Shown here: positions 8,728-42,376 of the stretch, in pieces | Numbering within the stretch: position 1 is the first letter of the stretch | Layout: the number at the start of each line of letters is the position of its first letter | Origin: an uncultured Eubacteriales bacterium | GTDB lineage: Bacteria > Bacillota > Clostridia > Oscillospirales > Ruminococcaceae | Length of the DNA stretch: 64,000 bases | Assembly: GCA_902489745.1 (NCBI GenBank) | Contig: CABUBB010000008.1 | Location: forward strand, 15,987-79,986 | Reading direction: 5' to 3' | Position numbers and translations under genes: made by a program | Notes under the pieces: generated by a model | What the model saw: the letters and a program-made list of their open reading frames with translations, nothing else | Databases searched by the model: none | What the model was told of the DNA's origin: nothing

Positions 8728-8755
8728 TTGAATTCCGTTCCATTCATGCTATAAT
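8728..8755 (+). promoter_or_regulatory. Promoter of the divergent DRTGG/GHKL/HydS-like cluster
   Basis: It reads TTGAAT, a 16-nt spacer, then TGCTATAAT (extended -10). It lies about 100 nt upstream of the first ATG. Confidence 0.55.
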
Positions 8756-8857
8756 AAGGGTACAGAAACCGGCGCTGCACACTGTTTCAGAGCGCGGCCG
8801 ACCGGCCCCGGAGAGCGACAAACCCGAAATGATTTGCCGGAGAAATGGAGAGTTATT

Positions 8858-9205
8858 ATGACGATTGGAGACATTCAAAAAATTCTGGACGCCAAAATCA
8901 TTTGCGGTAACGAGAACCTCGGTATTGAAATTCACACCGCATGCGGCTCCGATATGATGAGTGACGTACTTGCCTTTGTAAAGGATCAGTCCTGCCTTTT
9001 GACCGGCATGGTTAATCCACAGGTAATACGCACGGCAGACATGATGGATATGCACTGCATTATTTTTGTACGCGGCAAAAAGCCGGACGACACCATGATT
9101 GAGCTTGCAAACGAGCGCGGCATTACCCTGATGACCACCGCCCACCGGATGTTCAACGCCTGCGGCCTGCTTTGGGAAAACGGCCTGAGGGGAGGCGGCA
9201 TTTAA
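8858..9205 (+). CDS. DRTGG-domain protein (copy 1)
   Basis: About 115 aa with DRTGG-domain-like sequence (SDMMSDVLAF..LLTGMVNPQVIRTA). The start was set at MTIGD because a GGAGAG RBS precedes it. Confidence 0.6.
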   Translation: MTIGDIQKILDAKIICGNENLGIEIHTACGSDMMSDVLAFVKDQSCLLTGMVNPQVIRTADMMDMHCIIFVRGKKPDDTMIELANERGITLMTTAHRMFNACGLLWENGLRGGGI

Positions 9206-9209
9206 TCTC

Positions 9210-9644
9210 ATGAGTGAAATGAACGACGCGGTCACCCTCCGTTATGACGTAGACGGCAACGATTTTACCCGCGCGGGGGAAGCCTCTGCGAATGTCAAAA
9301 AGACGCTGCGTCAGCTTGGCATTGCGCCGGACGTCATCCGCAAAGTGGCAATCGTGCTGTATGAGGGTGAAATTAACATGGTCATTCACGCAAACGGCGG
9401 CGTGATTGACGTCACCATTGCGCCGGAAGCAATTCAAATGGTGCTCAAGGACACCGGCAAGGGCATTGCCGACATTGAGCTTGCTATGAAAGAAGGCTAT
9501 TCCACTGCACCGGAGGAGGTGCGCTCGCTCGGATTTGGCGCAGGCATGGGTCTTTCCAACATGAAAAAGTACAGCGATGAAATGCATATAGACTCCACCG
9601 TTGGGGTGGGCACCACGGTGACCATGACGGTGAAAATTGCATAG
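9210..9644 (+). CDS. RsbW/SpoIIAB-like GHKL serine-kinase / anti-sigma-type ATPase
   Basis: A 144-aa protein with the pattern EGEINMVIHA ... DTGKGIADIE ... GFGAGMGLSN, typical of small HATPase_c anti-sigma regulatory factors. Confidence 0.65.
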   Translation: MSEMNDAVTLRYDVDGNDFTRAGEASANVKKTLRQLGIAPDVIRKVAIVLYEGEINMVIHANGGVIDVTIAPEAIQMVLKDTGKGIADIELAMKEGYSTAPEEVRSLGFGAGMGLSNMKKYSDEMHIDSTVGVGTTVTMTVKIA

Positions 9645-9730
9645 CATCAGTGCGCAGAAACAATCAAGAAGCATCACATCCTTAGAACAAGCTACCACTG
9701 CAATACAATTTTTGAAAGGGGTGCTGCCAG

Positions 9731-11044
9731 GTGGAATTTTTCCATTCCGTTACTTTGGATAAAGAAAAGTGCAAAGGGTGCATCAATTGCATTAAACGCT
9801 GTCCGACCGAGGCCATTCGCGTGCGCAACAAGAAAGCGTACATCATCCCAGAGCGGTGCATCGACTGCGGCGAGTGTATCCGTGTCTGCCCGCACCATGC
9901 CAAAAAGGCAACCTGTGATTCTCTGGACATTCTGGAACAATTCAAGTACACCATTGCCCTTCCGGCGCCGGCGCTCTATGGGCAGTTCAACAATATGGAC
10001 GACATCGACATCCTGCTGCGCGCGCTTATCGACTTCGGTTTTGACGAGGTCTACGAGGTTGCGAAAGCGGCCGAGCTCGTTTCGGCTGCAACCCGCAAGC
10101 TGATGCGGGAAGGCAACCTGCCGCGGCCGGTCATCAGTTCGGCCTGCCCAGCGGTGACGCGGCTTATTCGAGTGCGTTTTCCGAACCTGATTGACCATGT
10201 GCTCCCGCTCAACGCACCAGTTGAGCTGGCGGCGAGACTGTCCAAAGAGGCAGCACATGAAAAAACCGGCATTCCCATGAAGGACATTGGTGCCATTTTC
10301 ATCTCGCCCTGTGCGGCCAAGGTAACGGCTTCCAAGATGCCGCTCGGCACCGAAAAGAGCGAAGTGTCCGGCGTTGTTTCCATTAACGATATTTATCCGA
10401 AACTGCTTTCCATTATGCATCTGCCTGTCCAAGAAGATGAATCACTTGTGCAGAGCGGCAAGATCGGCGTAGCGTGGGGTACCAGCTCCGGCGAGGCGGC
10501 TGGGCTGCTCAACGACAGCTATCTGGCGGCGGACGGGATCGAAAACGTCATCCGTGTGCTGGACGATTTGGAGGACGAACGATTCAACAATCTGGAATTT
10601 ATTGAATTAAACGCTTGCAGCGGCGGCTGTGTAGGCGGCGTGCTGACGGTGGAGAACCCGTATATTGCCAAAGCGAAGCTCAAGCGGATTGTCAAATACC
10701 TACCGGTGTCGATGAACCATATTGACAAGGTACCAGATGAGGCGGTGTGGGATTCTAAGCTGGAATACGCGCCGGTTCTGACGCTGGATTCGGATATGCA
10801 CAAGGCCTTTGAAAAGATGAACGAGCTTGAACAGATTGAATCCGAGCTTCCAGGGCTGGACTGCGGCTCCTGTGGCGCGCCATCCTGCCGGGCGCTGGCA
10901 GAGGACGTTGTGCGGGGCGTTGCCTCGCCGGACGACTGCATCTTCAAATACAAGGAGAGCATTGAAAACCTAATTCGGGATATCCACAAGATCGAAGCCT
11001 CGATTCCGCCGCCGTTCCGCACCGAGGAGGACGAGGAAAAGTAA
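9731..11044 (+). CDS. HydS-like putative sensory [FeFe]-hydrogenase homologue: 2x[4Fe-4S], an H-cluster domain and a C-terminal Cys-rich Fe-S domain
   Basis: GTG start with an AAAGGGG RBS. It has CKGCINCIKRCP and CIDCGECIRVCP motifs. The H-cluster motif equivalents are SSACP, SPCAAK and ELNACSGGCVGG. The C-terminus has LDCGSCGAPSCRALAED...DDC. Confidence 0.75.
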   Translation: MEFFHSVTLDKEKCKGCINCIKRCPTEAIRVRNKKAYIIPERCIDCGECIRVCPHHAKKATCDSLDILEQFKYTIALPAPALYGQFNNMDDIDILLRALIDFGFDEVYEVAKAAELVSAATRKLMREGNLPRPVISSACPAVTRLIRVRFPNLIDHVLPLNAPVELAARLSKEAAHEKTGIPMKDIGAIFISPCAAKVTASKMPLGTEKSEVSGVVSINDIYPKLLSIMHLPVQEDESLVQSGKIGVAWGTSSGEAAGLLNDSYLAADGIENVIRVLDDLEDERFNNLEFIELNACSGGCVGGVLTVENPYIAKAKLKRIVKYLPVSMNHIDKVPDEAVWDSKLEYAPVLTLDSDMHKAFEKMNELEQIESELPGLDCGSCGAPSCRALAEDVVRGVASPDDCIFKYKESIENLIRDIHKIEASIPPPFRTEEDEEK

Positions 11045-11326
11045 AAGAACCGATGCGGGGGCATATGATGCTTTGACGTTTCACCCGCTCCCGCGGGTGG
11101 GCAACTCCGTTTCCAAGATTAACTAAACAAATCTACAGGCAACGTCAAAGTATATGAAGGGCTGAAACTTTCGCTGTAGAAGGCGTATGAACGCGATCGG
11201 GATAAAGGAAATGCATGCTTTTACGGCCCGGTGCGATACGCCAAAACATGGTCTCCGGGATCATATAAAGTAAAACCAAAAACACTATTTGTATTATTAT
11301 CTGAAATTATACAAGGAGGCGTTCCT

Positions 11327-11662
11327 ATGACACCGATGGAACTTGCCAAAGCACTGAATTTAAAGGTTGTCAGCGCCGGGAATGGCAGCGAGCGGACGGC
11401 AGGCGGGGTATTCTGCTGTGATCTGCTCAGTATCGTAATGGGAAAAACCAAGACTGACGCGGTCTGGATTACGGTGATGAGCAACATCAATACGGTGGCG
11501 GTGGCGGTGCTTTCCGACGTGAGCTGTGTGATTGTCTCCGAGGGAATCCCGGTGGATGAGGAAATGACACGGCGGGCCGAGCAACAGGACGTCTGCCTGC
11601 TGCAAAGCGATCTGCCTTCTTTTGACCTTGGGCTTGCTATTCACAAGCTGTTAAACCCATGA
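11327..11662 (+). CDS. DRTGG-domain protein (copy 2)
   Basis: It is a paralogue-like match to the first DRTGG protein (CCDLLSIVMGK..VWITVMSNINTVAVA). An AGGAGG RBS precedes the ATG at 11327. Confidence 0.6.
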   Translation: MTPMELAKALNLKVVSAGNGSERTAGGVFCCDLLSIVMGKTKTDAVWITVMSNINTVAVAVLSDVSCVIVSEGIPVDEEMTRRAEQQDVCLLQSDLPSFDLGLAIHKLLNP

Positions 11663-12345
11663 GATACTCATACGACCTGCACATGCACTCCTGCCTTTCC
11701 CCCTGTGGGGATATGGATATGACGCCGAACAACATTGTCAACATGGCTTGCCTGCTGGGCTTGGACATCATTGCCGTGAGTGACCACAACACAGCCCGCA
11801 ATCTGCCCGCGGTTTTCGCGGTGGCAAAGGAAGCGGGGCTGACGGTGGTACCCGCGATTGAAGCGTCCAGCGCGGAGGAGGTTCATGTGCTCTGCCTGTT
11901 TGAACGGCTGGAGGATGCCCTCTCCTGTTCTGACGAATTTTATGAGCACCTGCCGCCGGTCATCAACAGGCCGGAAATTTTTGGTGAGCAGATCATCTTA
12001 AACGAAAAGGACGAACGGATTGGAACCATTGACAAGCTGCTGATTAATGCGCTGGATTTGGGTATGGACGCTCTGCTTGAAACGGTGCGCCGCCACGGCG
12101 GCCTGCCTATCCCCGCTCACGCGGACAAAAGCGCTTATTCCATCATGTCAAACCTGGGGTATATTCCAGAGGAATACGGATTTCACTGCATTGAAGTCAA
12201 AAATCCGGACATCGGTCTGCCCTTCAAAGGACGGCGCATTACCGACTCGGATGCGCACTACCTGCAAGATATTGCCGAGCCAATCCATTTTCTGGAGCTG
12301 CCGGAAAAAAGCGTGCAGGCTGTGCTGGCGTTGTTAAGCAAATAA
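11659..12345 (+). CDS. PHP-domain metal-dependent phosphoesterase
   Basis: It carries YDLHMHSCLSPCGD and AVSDHNT motifs. Its start overlaps the upstream stop in an ATGA junction. Confidence 0.75.
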   Translation: MRYSYDLHMHSCLSPCGDMDMTPNNIVNMACLLGLDIIAVSDHNTARNLPAVFAVAKEAGLTVVPAIEASSAEEVHVLCLFERLEDALSCSDEFYEHLPPVINRPEIFGEQIILNEKDERIGTIDKLLINALDLGMDALLETVRRHGGLPIPAHADKSAYSIMSNLGYIPEEYGFHCIEVKNPDIGLPFKGRRITDSDAHYLQDIAEPIHFLELPEKSVQAVLALLSK

Positions 12346-39390: not shown

Positions 39391-39429
39391 GTTCGAAAAA
39401 ATCAAAAAGCCCCCACCGAAGCGGAGGCT
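39391..39429 (-). terminator. Terminator after the NifX-like gene
   Basis: On the minus strand gcctccgc-ttcg-gtgggggc forms a hairpin with a UUCG loop, followed by TTTTTGATTTTTT. Confidence 0.65.
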
Positions 39430-39442
39430 TTTGACCTAAAAC

Positions 39443-39826
39443 TTATTCGTGGTGATGGCCGCAGGTGTGGCCATGTTCATGACCTTCCCCGTGGTGGTGG
39501 CTACACTGCACGTTAGGATTATGCTGAAGCGCGCCGGAGAGGTAATCCGCTACAGCGGTCTCGATATCACCGGAAGCGCCTGCAACAAGCTCAATGCCGG
39601 CCGACTGGAGTGCCGCCTTTGCACCGCCGCCAATACCGCCGCAAATTAACAGCGAAACGCCGTTTTGTTTGAGGATAACCGCAAGAGCCTCGTGACCGCT
39701 CATGGAAGTATCCAGATCAGAACGTGCGACAACCTTGCCTTCCTCAACGGTAAAGAGTTTAAAAATTTTTGTGTGGCCGAAATGCTGGAATACCTGGTTC
39801 CCTTCGGCTGTGACTGCAATAACCAT
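39443..39826 (-). CDS. NifB/NifX-family (dinitrogenase FeMo-cofactor-binding fold) protein with a His-rich C-terminal tail
   Basis: It carries QHFGHTKIFKLF and LICGGIGGGA motifs. The tail reads CSHHHGEGHEHGHTCGHHHE. Confidence 0.7.
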   Translation of the reverse strand: MVIAVTAEGNQVFQHFGHTKIFKLFTVEEGKVVARSDLDTSMSGHEALAVILKQNGVSLLICGGIGGGAKAALQSAGIELVAGASGDIETAVADYLSGALQHNPNVQCSHHHGEGHEHGHTCGHHHE

Positions 39827-39917
39827 TTGCTTTTCCTCCCAAAGGCGAGGACCTGTTGAAGTCCCTGCAAATAAAATGTTTAAACCTCTTCACGGCAAAA
39901 GCCGGAATGCGCCAAGT

Positions 39918-40748
39918 TTACAGCGTTTCAATCAAGTCGGCGGCACCGTCGAGCCAATCGCCCTCAAACAATTCGATGACACCCTGATCCGCTGCCTGCG
40001 CGACTGCCGGGGAAACCGGGAGCTTGGCAAGAACCTTAATACCATAGCGAGAGGTGATTTCATCGATGTGGCTCTGACCGAACAGTTCAATTTTTTTGCC
40101 GCAGTCCGGGCATTCCACATAGCTGAGGTTCTCAACAACGCCAAGGATCGGGATGTTCATCATATTCGCCATGTTGACCGCTTTTTCCACAATCATCGAG
40201 ACGAGTTCCTGCGGAGAAGCGACAACAATGATACCGTCAAGCGGGAGAGACTGGAAAACGGTGAGCGGCACGTCGCCGGTTCCCGGAGGCATATCGACAA
40301 ACATATAATCAACGTCCTGCCAGACCACGTCGGTCCAGAACTGCTGAACCACTCCCGCAAGGATCGGTCCGCGCCAGATGACCGGGTCGGTGTCATTTTC
40401 CAGCAGGAGGTTGACCGACATAATATCAATGCCGGTTTTGCTCTTGGCCGGGACAATGCCCCATTCGTTCGACATGGCTTTTTCCTTAATACCGAACGCT
40501 TTCGGAATTGACGGGCCGGTGATGTCTGCGTCAAAGACAGCACTGTGGTGGCCGCGGCGGTTCATCAGAACCGCAAGCATGGAAGTGACCATGGATTTCC
40601 CGACGCCGCCTTTGCCGCTGACAACACCAATGACCTTTTTGACGGAACTCATTTCATTGAGGGAGAGCAGCATGCTCTCCTGTTCCCGCTCGCTGCAGTT
40701 CTGGCTACAGGAGCCACAATCGTGATTACAGGCTTCGCTCATTTTCAT
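39918..40748 (-). CDS. Mrp/NBP35/ApbC-family P-loop ATPase (Fe-S cluster carrier-like) with an N-terminal Cys4 extension
   Basis: It has a deviant Walker A (GKGGVGKS), a CPDCG motif, and an N-terminal CNHDCGSCSQNC. Its start overlaps the DUF134 stop in an ATGA junction. Confidence 0.8.
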   Translation of the reverse strand: MKMSEACNHDCGSCSQNCSEREQESMLLSLNEMSSVKKVIGVVSGKGGVGKSMVTSMLAVLMNRRGHHSAVFDADITGPSIPKAFGIKEKAMSNEWGIVPAKSKTGIDIMSVNLLLENDTDPVIWRGPILAGVVQQFWTDVVWQDVDYMFVDMPPGTGDVPLTVFQSLPLDGIIVVASPQELVSMIVEKAVNMANMMNIPILGVVENLSYVECPDCGKKIELFGQSHIDEITSRYGIKVLAKLPVSPAVAQAADQGVIELFEGDWLDGAADLIETL

Positions 40749-41092
40749 TTCTCCTCTTTGTTTTCAAACCGGCAGTGAGCGCAGGATTCCCTCTGCGCAC
40801 AGGGGCGGTCTGTAATTTCGTAATTTCCGCCCTGAATGGACAGGGCCTTTCCCAATACAATGGCTTCCGCTGTATGCCGGCGGGCCGAATACAGCACCCG
40901 CTGCAGCGTCCCGCGTGAAACATTCATCCGCCCGGCGGCCTCTGCCTGATCCATCCCCTCCAGATCACAAAGGCGCAGAGCTTCCAGTTCTTCCACGCTC
41001 ATAACGATGGCCTGCCCTTCCCCGTGCTCCGGAGAAAAGCGGCGGCAGCCTGGCTCGGCGCAGACGCGCCTGCATTTTGCGCCTCTTGGCAT
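40745..41092 (-). CDS. DUF134 (UPF0251) putative DNA-binding protein
   Basis: It has the N-terminus MPRGAKCRRV and a sigma-70 region-4-like HTH (EELEALRLCDLEGMDQAEAAGRMNVSRGTLQRVL). An AGGAAG RBS precedes the ATG at 41092. Confidence 0.7.
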   Translation of the reverse strand: MPRGAKCRRVCAEPGCRRFSPEHGEGQAIVMSVEELEALRLCDLEGMDQAEAAGRMNVSRGTLQRVLYSARRHTAEAIVLGKALSIQGGNYEITDRPCAQRESCAHCRFENKEEK

Positions 41093-41140
41093 CTGATACA
41101 CTTCCTTTCGGACGACCGCCATCCGTTTTGGTTCCCTTTT

Positions 41141-41169
41141 ATTATAATGTGCATATGCACATTTGTCAA
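41141..41169 (-). promoter_or_regulatory. Consensus sigma-70 promoter of the DUF134 operon with a palindromic spacer
   Basis: On the minus strand it reads TTGACA, a 17-nt spacer, then TATAAT. An 18-bp perfect palindrome, AATGTGCATATGCACATT (41146-41163), spans the whole 17-nt spacer plus the last base of the -10. Confidence 0.7.
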
Positions 41170-41185
41170 CTCGTTCACATCACAG

Positions 41186-42376
41186 TTACGAATATGCAGT
41201 AAACCCGAGTTGTTTTAGTCCAAAACCAACATTTGGAAGCAACAATTTGTCCTGAATTGTATTCATGAATCCGTCAATTTTGCCGAGCATCTCCTCTACA
41301 AAATCCTCTTTGGAACCGTTTGAACCATTTCCACTTCTGAGCGAAAAGGAATCCAACTCCAACTGCATGGAGGATGAAACCGCCGATTTTTTCACCTCAG
41401 CCACCCCAGTGGCGTACCGGTTCGTATAAGCCAATTGGCACATGCCGTCATTTCCAAACGTCACAGATAAATATTCCTCTGCCTGAGCGCCTTCATACCG
41501 GAAAGTAATATCCCTCATATCCTCCCAGCACCATATATAATACAGCCCGTCTTGGTTGTTATGCTTCAGCATTTGGTAGCCGTGAATATCGTCTGGAGGA
41601 ATCTGCGTGACCACCCATGCGCTGAGAGAATAATACGGCTGCGATGGATCTGGATGGCCGCAATAATCGCAGAGATATTTCCCATAATCATGTCTGGGGG
41701 CGGTATAAGCGTCTGTATAGTGATACCCGCACTTGGAACAGGTATGCACCGTATACCCTTGTTTTGTGCAGGAGGGCCTAACTGTTTCCGCAATAAACGT
41801 ATGAGAGCAACCCTGCGGCTGTGACGGGGAATCGGCTTGAGACTGCGGCTGCGTACCGGACTGCGGTGAAATCTGCTGTTCCGGTTGCTGCTCAGACTGG
41901 GAAAAGGCCGCTTCACCCTCTTCGCCGAAGGAGGCGCTTTCACTGCTGGGTGCTTCCGGAAGCGGTTGCGTTTCCTGCGGCGCGGAGAACTCTCTCATGA
42001 TACTTTTTGGCAAAAGGTTCGCAGACCCGCCGTCACTTCCACTGACTGCAACGGTTTGATTCTGTATAAGCGCAACCGCAAGGACAACCCCTGCGAGAAA
42101 CAAAACAGCCAGGCACCCGGATACAACCGCTGTTCTTTTTTTACTGAAAAAACGCCCATGCCCAGCCAGTTTCCGATCCGCCTGTGCCTGCAAGGCACTT
42201 GCCAACGTTTCCGGCGCTGCATCTAGTGCATCTGCCAAAGGCGACAACTGACTTTCCGGAATAGTGGCACCGGACTCCCATTCGGAAAGCTCCTTAACGG
42301 TTATACCAAGTTTTTCTGCCAGAACAGGCCGCGATAAATGTTTTTTACGACGTAATTTTGCAAGCTGCTTCATCAT
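41186..42376 (-). CDS. Membrane-anchored XRE-family HTH protein with an extracytoplasmic Cys-rich domain
   Basis: It has an N-terminal HTH (LSRPVLAEKLGITVKELSEWESG), one TM segment (AVVSGCLAVLFLAGVVLAVALI), an S/Q/P-rich linker, and then CSH..C..C..CSKCG..CDYCG. Confidence 0.6.
   Translation of the reverse strand: MMKQLAKLRRKKHLSRPVLAEKLGITVKELSEWESGATIPESQLSPLADALDAAPETLASALQAQADRKLAGHGRFFSKKRTAVVSGCLAVLFLAGVVLAVALIQNQTVAVSGSDGGSANLLPKSIMREFSAPQETQPLPEAPSSESASFGEEGEAAFSQSEQQPEQQISPQSGTQPQSQADSPSQPQGCSHTFIAETVRPSCTKQGYTVHTCSKCGYHYTDAYTAPRHDYGKYLCDYCGHPDPSQPYYSLSAWVVTQIPPDDIHGYQMLKHNNQDGLYYIWCWEDMRDITFRYEGAQAEEYLSVTFGNDGMCQLAYTNRYATGVAEVKKSAVSSSMQLELDSFSLRSGNGSNGSKEDFVEEMLGKIDGFMNTIQDKLLLPNVGFGLKQLGFTAYS

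Follow-up and report, generated by a model that had tools for sequence, protein, structure and literature searches.

What an operon that joins a putative regulator, an iron-sulfur (Fe-S) carrier ATPase and a nitrogenase-cofactor-type domain might do is the question raised by a locus on contig CABUBB010000008.1 of an uncultured Eubacteriales bacterium (Ruminococcaceae; GCA_902489745.1). The 64,000-nt stretch of this contig that was analyzed is referred to as the window, and coordinates follow its numbering; the host genome comprises 2.5 Mb and is 100% complete. Three open reading frames (ORFs) lie on the minus strand at 39405-41169 in the order DUF134, Mrp/NBP35 and NifX-like. An earlier reading, made from the letters and their translations (the sequence-only reading), had described them as a self-regulated module of undefined function for a metallocluster, possibly in the service of hydrogenase. 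Our analysis indicated, with a probability of roughly 0.6, that the operon is a minimal, split and self-repressed MrpORP-type Fe-S cluster carrier module of anaerobes. The handling of a metal-sulfur cofactor was thereby supported, while the function was less undefined than had been stated, as Mrp is the counterpart of the N-terminal domain, and the NifX-like protein that of the C-terminal domain, of the characterized protein MrpORP.

The product of the second gene matched PF10609 with 286 bits and contains a Walker A motif (GKGGVGKS), a CPDC motif and the N-terminal motif CNHDCGSCSQNC, in agreement with its earlier description as a P-loop carrier of the Mrp/NBP35 type with four extra N-terminal cysteines. 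The deviant Walker A signature GKGGhGK[ST] takes the form GKGGVGKS in the window protein and in all 57 orthologues. The CXXC motif, found in the context YVECPDCGKK in the window, occupies the same position in 57/57 orthologues, mostly as CPDC with the variants CGNC, CPGC and CPHC in some, and the N-terminal cysteines are spaced Cx3Cx2Cx3C in 50 of the 57, with near variants in the other seven. The predicted protein carries every sequence signature of Mrp/NBP35 Fe-S carriers, and Fe-S binding, cluster transfer and ATP hydrolysis are predicted for it by homology. The genome encodes no other true Mrp, and this one scored 187 bits against the ApbC equivalog model (cut-off, 348). When compared with the NCBIfam model of MrpORP (NF041136, 365 positions), the window Mrp aligned with positions 1-235 (331 bits) and the NifX-like protein with positions 265-365 (74 bits).

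The NifX-like protein, encoded by the only such gene in the genome, matched PF02579 with 73.8 bits, confirming the proposed NifB/NifX fold, and its C-terminus ends in ...VQCSHHHGEGHEHGHTCGHHHE. A search of the PDB retrieved TM1816 (1o13/1t3v; E = 1.3e-12) and the orange protein 2wfb (E = 0.17); for comparison, the first NifX-like paralogue of locus L018, which is of the ORP type, matched 2wfb with an E value of 1.6e-13. The C-terminus had been called a His tail, and it is indeed His-rich (10 His and 2 Cys in the last 26 residues), but it proved to be a conserved Cys/His motif beginning C-x-H-H rather than a plain His tail. At least 4 His occur in the last 25 residues of 54/61 NifX-like orthologues, and nearly all of these tails open with C-[NDS]-H-H and contain 2-6 Cys. 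The window tail further contains 3 Glu and neither Lys nor Arg, and its opening C-x-H-H may correspond to the CDH motif of MrpORP. The internal motif reads QHFGHTK, so that both cysteines of the CXHFGHCE motif of MrpORP are absent, whereas many relatives have HFG[HK]C. Two interruptions were seen near the tail: a stop codon separates a fused Mrp-NifX body from its in-frame Cys/His tail at L036:6381-7583, and the NifX-like gene at L009:7299-7662 appears frameshifted ahead of the tail. Both may reflect decay, sequencing errors or recoding.

Such a tail invites another explanation, namely divalent-metal buffering or chaperoning with an SmtB/SmtA-like logic, whereby the NifX-like protein would store or deliver Ni, Zn, Co or Cu, the DUF134 cysteines would sense metal and derepress the operon, and Mrp would be a CooC/HypB-like insertion NTPase. 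The tail is conserved and resembles those of Ni/Zn chaperones, DUF134 has five conserved cysteines, and a distant DUF134 gene adjoins a heavy-metal P-type ATPase gene (L096). However, the ATPase is a bona fide Mrp/NBP35 protein with a cluster-bridging CXXC, and every characterized member of the NifX-like fold (the MrpORP C-terminal domain, ORP, IssA and NifX) binds metal-sulfur clusters. In addition, the same DUF134 genes stand first in complete ORP clusters that encode ferredoxin-type ATPases; [NiFe] hydrogenase is missing from the genome, and the sole Prismane/CODH-family gene there appears to be fragmented. Overall, we consider metal buffering unlikely. The narrower candidate of a His-rich Ni chaperone of the HypB, SlyD or UreE type was weakened by the NifX-like fold and by these same two genomic findings; urease was not checked. 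The Prismane/CODH-family gene itself (G000:C3:174379-175771, outside the window) is split over several frames with in-frame stops and is either a pseudogene or an assembly error.

The assignment to an MrpORP-type carrier module was strengthened by gene order in relatives, a check that the sequence-only reading had named. One genome per species was scanned with the DUF134 alignment, which yielded 80 loci (DUF134 identity, 48-96%) from Oscillospiraceae, Lachnospiraceae, Christensenella, Cellulosilyticum and Anaerocolumna, and also from Synergistaceae. An Mrp gene, a NifX-like gene or both lie downstream of DUF134 on the same strand in 80/80 loci, arranged as DUF134-Mrp-NifX in 42, DUF134-Mrp in 18 and DUF134-NifX in 20. 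The arrangement is far beyond chance, and the three genes are one conserved predicted transcription unit, as had been claimed. Clustering of all ORFs from -3.5 to +5.5 kb of DUF134 revealed no additional partner or client gene in more than about 10 of the 80 loci; since the flanking genes are not conserved, the module is autonomous. In one locus (L016:6275-6817), an ORF for a C_GCAxxG_C_C 'putative redox-active protein' (PF09719) was observed between DUF134 and the NifX-like gene, and ORFs of the same cluster occupy this position in seven other loci of this clade that have no Mrp gene (e.g., L026, L039, L057, L063 and L068).

Gene fusions pointed in the same direction. In 18 of the 57 complete Mrp orthologues, Mrp and the NifX-like domain form a single protein of 407-439 residues, with the tail included and the spacer gone, and these fusions scored 406-422 bits against the full MrpORP model. 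A second type of fusion emerged from 20 unbiased DUF134 loci taken from different families, 3 of which (L095, L103 and L104; genomes G058, G071 and G048) encode DUF134 and the NifX-like domain in one ORF of 229-273 residues. The NifX-like part of the L103 protein is 55% identical to the window protein and has the same tail. Used as a query, this protein retrieved 2,945 related protein clusters at E <= 1e-10; the best 120 of them all carry both PF02001 and PF02579, and those with a named source belong to Mitsuokella, Anaerovibrio and Selenomonas, which are Selenomonadales-type genera. An AlphaFold2 (AF2) model of a DUF134-NifX fusion (predicted local distance difference test [pLDDT], 81; predicted template modeling score [pTM], 0.67) showed well-folded domains joined by a disordered linker and followed by a disordered tail. 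Fused to the carrier in one set of lineages and to the regulator in another, the NifX-like domain probably works physically with both, according to Rosetta-stone logic.

The predicted signals and genes of the operon are listed in Table 1. The longest ORF of DUF134 begins with an ATG at 41122, while an alternative ATG at 41092 (MPRGAKCRRVC...) has AAGGAAG 8 nt upstream; since all homologues begin MPR..KCRRVC and this ATG has a ribosome-binding site, the start is almost certainly at 41092. The sequence-only reading had placed the Mrp start in an ATGA overlap with the DUF134 stop. The overlap is present in the sequence at 40745-40748, but a second ATG at 40742 follows a GAGGAG site at 8 nt. Given this spacing and the fact that Mrp homologues begin MSE..C, the real junction is probably a 2-nt gap; the coupling of DUF134 and Mrp is tight whichever start holds. 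The consensus promoter and the dedicated terminator reported earlier were both confirmed, as TTGACA-17-TATAAT (41169-41141, minus strand) matches the sigma-70 consensus at 12/12 positions with a 17-nt spacer, and a 12-bp stem with a T-run closes the unit. No internal promoter or terminator was called on the minus strand within the operon. Directly upstream lies a gene for an XRE-type helix-turn-helix (HTH) protein (396 residues; 41186-42376, minus strand). The flanking XRE regulator and lipoprotein genes are common only to the near-identical relative L008, and the XRE gene, kept beside the module only there, is not regarded as part of it.

Table 1. Predicted features of the DUF134-Mrp-NifX operon (window coordinates)
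Feature	Position	Strand	Basis or remark
-35 hexamer TTGACA	41164..41169	-	promoter scan
-10 hexamer TATAAT	41141..41146	-	promoter scan
Perfect 18-bp palindrome AATGTGCATATGCACATT, putative DUF134 operator	41146..41163		fills promoter spacer
DUF134/UPF0251 gene, 115 aa, putative auto-repressor	40745..41092	-	PF02001 + PF08281
Mrp/NBP35-type P-loop Fe-S carrier gene, 274-276 aa	39918..40748, probable start 40742	-	PF10609, NF041136
Mrp-to-NifX-like spacer, 91 nt, GGGAGG ribosome-binding site	39827..39917	-	
NifX-like (Nitro_FeMo-Co/Di-Nase) gene, TM1816/MrpORP C-terminal type, 127 aa	39443..39826	-	PF02579
Cys/His-rich C-terminal tail CSHHHGEGHEHGHTCGHHHE of NifX-like protein	39446..39505	-	
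Intrinsic terminator, 12-bp stem then T-run, strong	39405..39432	-	

DUF134, a single-copy gene in this genome, was confirmed as a DUF134/UPF0251 protein with a sigma-70 region-4-type HTH by its matches to PF02001 (78.9 bits; cut-off, 27) and Sigma70_r4_2 (PF08281; 28.7 bits; cut-off, 25.7). Its AF2 model (pLDDT, 86.6; pTM, 0.80) contains a three-helix HTH that superposes on region 4 of SigR/ECF sigma factors and on the DNA-binding domain of DeoR. In a fold search with the model, only the HTH of about 45 residues was matched, weakly (E >= 0.07), and no solved structure resembling the whole fold was found. Alignments showed C11, C104 and C107 to be invariant and C7 and C98 to be nearly so. The family is widespread, occurring in 107/151 sampled genomes of the phylum and in 91/127 genera. 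The literature searched yielded no functional study of DUF134 (UPF0251/PF02001/COG1342) or of its operator. Orp7 (DVU2107) of D. vulgaris is presumably a DUF134 protein.

The palindrome within the promoter spacer shares its last base with the -10 hexamer (41146) and conforms to a consensus, AATGnGCATATGCnCATT, that recurs upstream of DUF134. The exact core GCATATGC was found within 160 nt upstream of DUF134 in 76/81 loci, twice in 42 of them, and 118 of the 142 cores present in 830 kb of locus DNA fall in these stretches of 160 nt, about 1.6% of the total. Paired boxes have a TATAAT/TATACT -10 hexamer between them and are in most cases spaced by 26-27 bp; the window promoter has one box only, inside the spacer. 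A weight matrix built from the 118 sites (weakest training site, 17.5 bits) identified one good site in the whole 2.5-Mb genome, namely the promoter of this operon, with the maximum possible score of 31.3 bits (next best, 14.5). A site of this kind, which lies across the core promoter, has no second copy in the genome and follows DUF134 from family to family, is what would be expected of a dedicated auto-repressor. We therefore consider it likely that the protein represses its own operon, and the proposal that the unit is self-regulated was supported by the conserved palindrome at this one promoter. A wider regulon was rejected on the same genome scan.

None of the 20 unbiased DUF134 loci had a site of the window clade above 15 bits, so the exact operator motif is clade-specific. 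Several of them have a related CATATG-centred palindrome, TGACATATGTCA, again in a two-box arrangement. This palindrome was observed upstream of DUF134 in L090, L095, L100, L103 and L104; in such distant clades, two boxes often enclose the -10 hexamer, and the first of them overlaps with a -35 hexamer, TTGACA.

These data also bear on whether the palindrome could be the site of a different regulator, with DUF134 as an accessory or adaptor protein of HTH-like fold. The binding of DUF134 to the palindrome is putative, and the structural matches of the protein are confined to the short HTH noted above. A global regulator, however, would not be expected to have a single genomic site, and the site follows DUF134 across families into Synergistaceae while the neighboring genes change. 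Moreover, the different CATATG palindromes of distant DUF134 clades are as expected for a co-evolving protein-site pair, and the adjacent XRE gene stands beside DUF134 only in L008. This alternative is quite unlikely in our estimation. The XRE regulator in particular was rejected as the operator binder, as it accompanies DUF134 in 0 of the other 79 loci.

Downstream of DUF134, Mrp, NifX-like or MinD-ferredoxin (Orp3/4-like) genes were found in 12/20 unbiased loci, and other metal or Fe-S genes in 4/20, encoding a hybrid-cluster protein (L091), a heavy-metal P-type ATPase (L096), an [FeFe] hydrogenase (L101) and a radical-SAM protein (L107). The remaining 4/20 loci have a class II ribonucleotide reductase, an HD-domain protein, a GlpP antiterminator or a Vut_1 transporter, or nothing identified (L102). 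In L099, counted among the 12 ORP-linked loci, the Orp4-like match precedes DUF134 and a radical-SAM gene follows it. Complete ORP-type clusters headed by DUF134 occur in other Bacillota (L018, L095, L106, L108 and L109), and several of the 12 loci are of this kind. More distant DUF134 genes precede their partners by about 300 nt in L091, L096, L097, L101, L107 and L099; these partners encode a hybrid-cluster protein, a heavy-metal P-type ATPase (together with CopZ), class II ribonucleotide reductase, [FeFe] hydrogenase and, in two cases, a radical-SAM enzyme. Such distant neighborhoods suggest that the DUF134 family regulates various metal and Fe-S functions.

The gene inventory of the host narrowed the range of possible clients. 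The absence of nitrogenase genes noted for the window extends to the whole 2.5-Mb genome, in which no NifDK-type gene (PF00148) was detected. Handling of FeMo-co as the role of the module was excluded, and a nitrogenase-related function was rejected despite the Nitro_FeMo-Co domain. Searches by tblastn with Orp3/4-like (MinD-ferredoxin) proteins retrieved only ferredoxin-motif fragments from the genome, which also has no orange-protein-type NifX paralogue, no [NiFe] hydrogenase and no A-type carrier. One SufB/D-type gene and one IscU/NifU-type scaffold are present. Given this set, together with the sole Mrp and the lack of Orp3/Orp4, the clients are most likely general Fe-S proteins and not an ORP complex.

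A dedicated maturation factor for one complex metalloenzyme, such as the [FeFe] hydrogenase system about 27 kb away in the window, would be a more specialized alternative. The organism depends on [FeFe]-type hydrogenases (window 8728-12345), one distant DUF134 gene is located upstream of an [FeFe] hydrogenase gene (L101), and another Mrp paralogue of D. vulgaris lies inside a hydrogenase-biogenesis operon (PMC6345978). However, no candidate is conserved beside the module in the 80 loci, where the flanks are common only to L008, and the operator occurs nowhere else in the genome, so that no client operon is co-regulated. That the Mrp is the only one in the genome fits a general carrier. The suggestion that the module serves hydrogenase was thus unsupported, and we regard a dedicated maturation role as very unlikely.

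On these grounds, the MrpORP-type carrier module might operate as follows. A DUF134 dimer would bind the palindrome through its sigma-4-like HTH and occlude RNA polymerase, thereby repressing DUF134, Mrp and the NifX-like gene, and its release would allow the three genes to be co-transcribed. On their CPDC cysteines, Mrp dimers would build or accept a bridging [4Fe-4S] cluster, with a second site on the N-terminal cysteines, and would serve as the late Fe-S carrier of the cell, passing clusters to apo-proteins in an ATP-dependent manner. The NifX-like protein may bind a cluster or a metal-sulfur species via its HFGH motif and Cys/His tail, and could dock on both Mrp and DUF134 to report the loading state of the carrier to the repressor; the five conserved cysteines of DUF134 may themselves be ligands for metal or for a cluster. 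The role of the NifX-like protein as a sensor-adaptor is the tentative part of this scheme, and we hold it to be possible rather than probable.

Several points weigh against the scheme. Every binding and transfer step was assigned by homology. The scores against the MrpORP model, whether 331 and 74 bits for the separate window proteins or 406-422 bits for the fused relatives, are all below the equivalog cut-off of 450. The window NifX-like protein, with QHFGHTK, is without both cysteines of the proposed CXHFGHCE ligand motif; in view of this absence, the protein may carry another type of cluster, or may instead use its His-rich tail to hold a plain metal ion. The pTM of 0.67 for the modeled fusion neither proves nor excludes a fixed DUF134-NifX interface. 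Lastly, the pairing of DUF134 with the palindrome is putative, and another factor could bind the site.

The gene families involved are ordinary, but neither the pairing of DUF134 with an operator as its repressor nor the two fusion partners of the NifX-like domain were found described in the literature searched. The maturation of Fe-S proteins in strict anaerobes is poorly understood, and ORP and MrpORP are without a settled cellular role. One extension, which we find doubtful, is that DUF134 and the Cys/His-tailed NifX-like domain constitute an unrecognized transcription-factor family that senses metal-sulfide or Fe-S status. Sensing would fall to the NifX-like domain and DNA-binding output to DUF134, the two being separate in the window and in most Clostridia and fused in Selenomonadales-type lineages; the same sensory domain would dock on the Mrp carrier, to which it is fused in MrpORP-type proteins. 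If true, the repressor would read the loading of the late Fe-S carrier directly, in a role like that of IscR/SufR in aerobes, and the sensor family would be present in about 70% of the sampled genomes of the phylum. The locus offers a minimal test bed, with a consensus promoter, a genome-unique perfect operator, a candidate repressor, a carrier and a small partner protein, and it makes the function of DUF134 and the control of Fe-S carrier levels in anaerobes directly testable at the bench.

Compared with known systems, the NifX-like protein recalls IssA of Pyrococcus furiosus, a thioferrate storage protein that likewise handles iron and sulfur and that carries a functional C-terminal tail after its IPR003731 globular domain. 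In IssA, this tail is cationic, with one Cys and an abundance of Gly and aromatic residues (PMC5524996), whereas the window tail is His/Cys/Glu-rich without Lys or Arg; IssA-like storage was rejected on this difference in tail chemistry. Among relatives of solved structure, TM1816 of Thermotoga maritima, a structural-genomics protein of NifB/NifX fold, is the best match to the NifX-like protein and also has a natural C-terminal His-rich tail, but the T. maritima control genome yielded no DUF134. ApbC/Mrp of bacteria and Nbp35/Cfd1 of eukaryotes share the Walker A motif, the CXXC and PF10609 with the window carrier, and Nbp35 also has an extra N-terminal 4-Cys site. The spacing of the N-terminal cysteines is nevertheless unlike that of Nbp35, and the DUF134 and NifX-like partners are specific to the window system.

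The ORP system of Desulfovibrio is similar in combining the same families (Mrp and NifX-like) with a small first gene in the operon, and in being regulated locally. In D. vulgaris, the orp operons are orp7-orp8-orp9 and orp5-orp4-orp3, and OrpR regulates only these (PMC8359166), comparable to the single operator in the window genome. The regulators differ in kind, OrpR being a sigma-54 enhancer-binding protein and the candidate of the window a DUF134 protein, and the window genome is without Orp3/Orp4 or an orange protein. From the homology to Orp9/MrpORP and from the DUF134 genes that head full ORP-type clusters in other Bacillota, it could be argued that the module is fully equivalent in function to the ORP complex and acts in cell division or morphology. 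Such an equivalent is, however, highly improbable in a genome that lacks Orp3/Orp4 (MinD-ferredoxin) homologues and whose single NifX-like gene falls outside the orange-protein type (2wfb, E = 0.17). The full ORP complex was rejected on the same absence of Orp3/Orp4 and of an orange-protein-type paralogue.

The closest characterized counterpart of the split carrier module is MrpORP itself, a two-domain Mrp/NBP35 protein known as Orp9 or DVU2109 in D. vulgaris Hildenborough and as Dde_3202 in D. alaskensis G20 (Pardoux et al. 2019, PMC6345978). The [4Fe-4S] cluster bound by its CXXC can be passed in vitro to apo-aconitase and to Orp3/Orp4, the Di-Nase domain carries a [3Fe-4S] cluster, and the protein has four extra N-terminal cysteines; 99 MrpORP-type fusions, Clostridia among them, have been catalogued (PMC6345978). 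The two systems differ in the spacing of the N-terminal cysteines (a regular Cx3Cx2Cx3C in the window versus CX3CX20CXC and CXCX5CX4C in MrpORP) and in the Di-Nase part, which in the window is without the CXHFGHCE cysteines and has a long Cys/His tail. They also differ in their surroundings, as orp3/orp4 client genes would be expected to cluster with MrpORP, whereas the window genome is without these clients, and in control, with a sigma-70 promoter and an operator in place of sigma-54/OrpR. Both, however, belong to anaerobes and combine a P-loop with a deviant Walker A, a CXXC, four extra N-terminal cysteines and a Di-Nase partner. What is one protein in MrpORP is divided in the window between two genes 91 nt apart, and the relatives of the window operon include the fused form.

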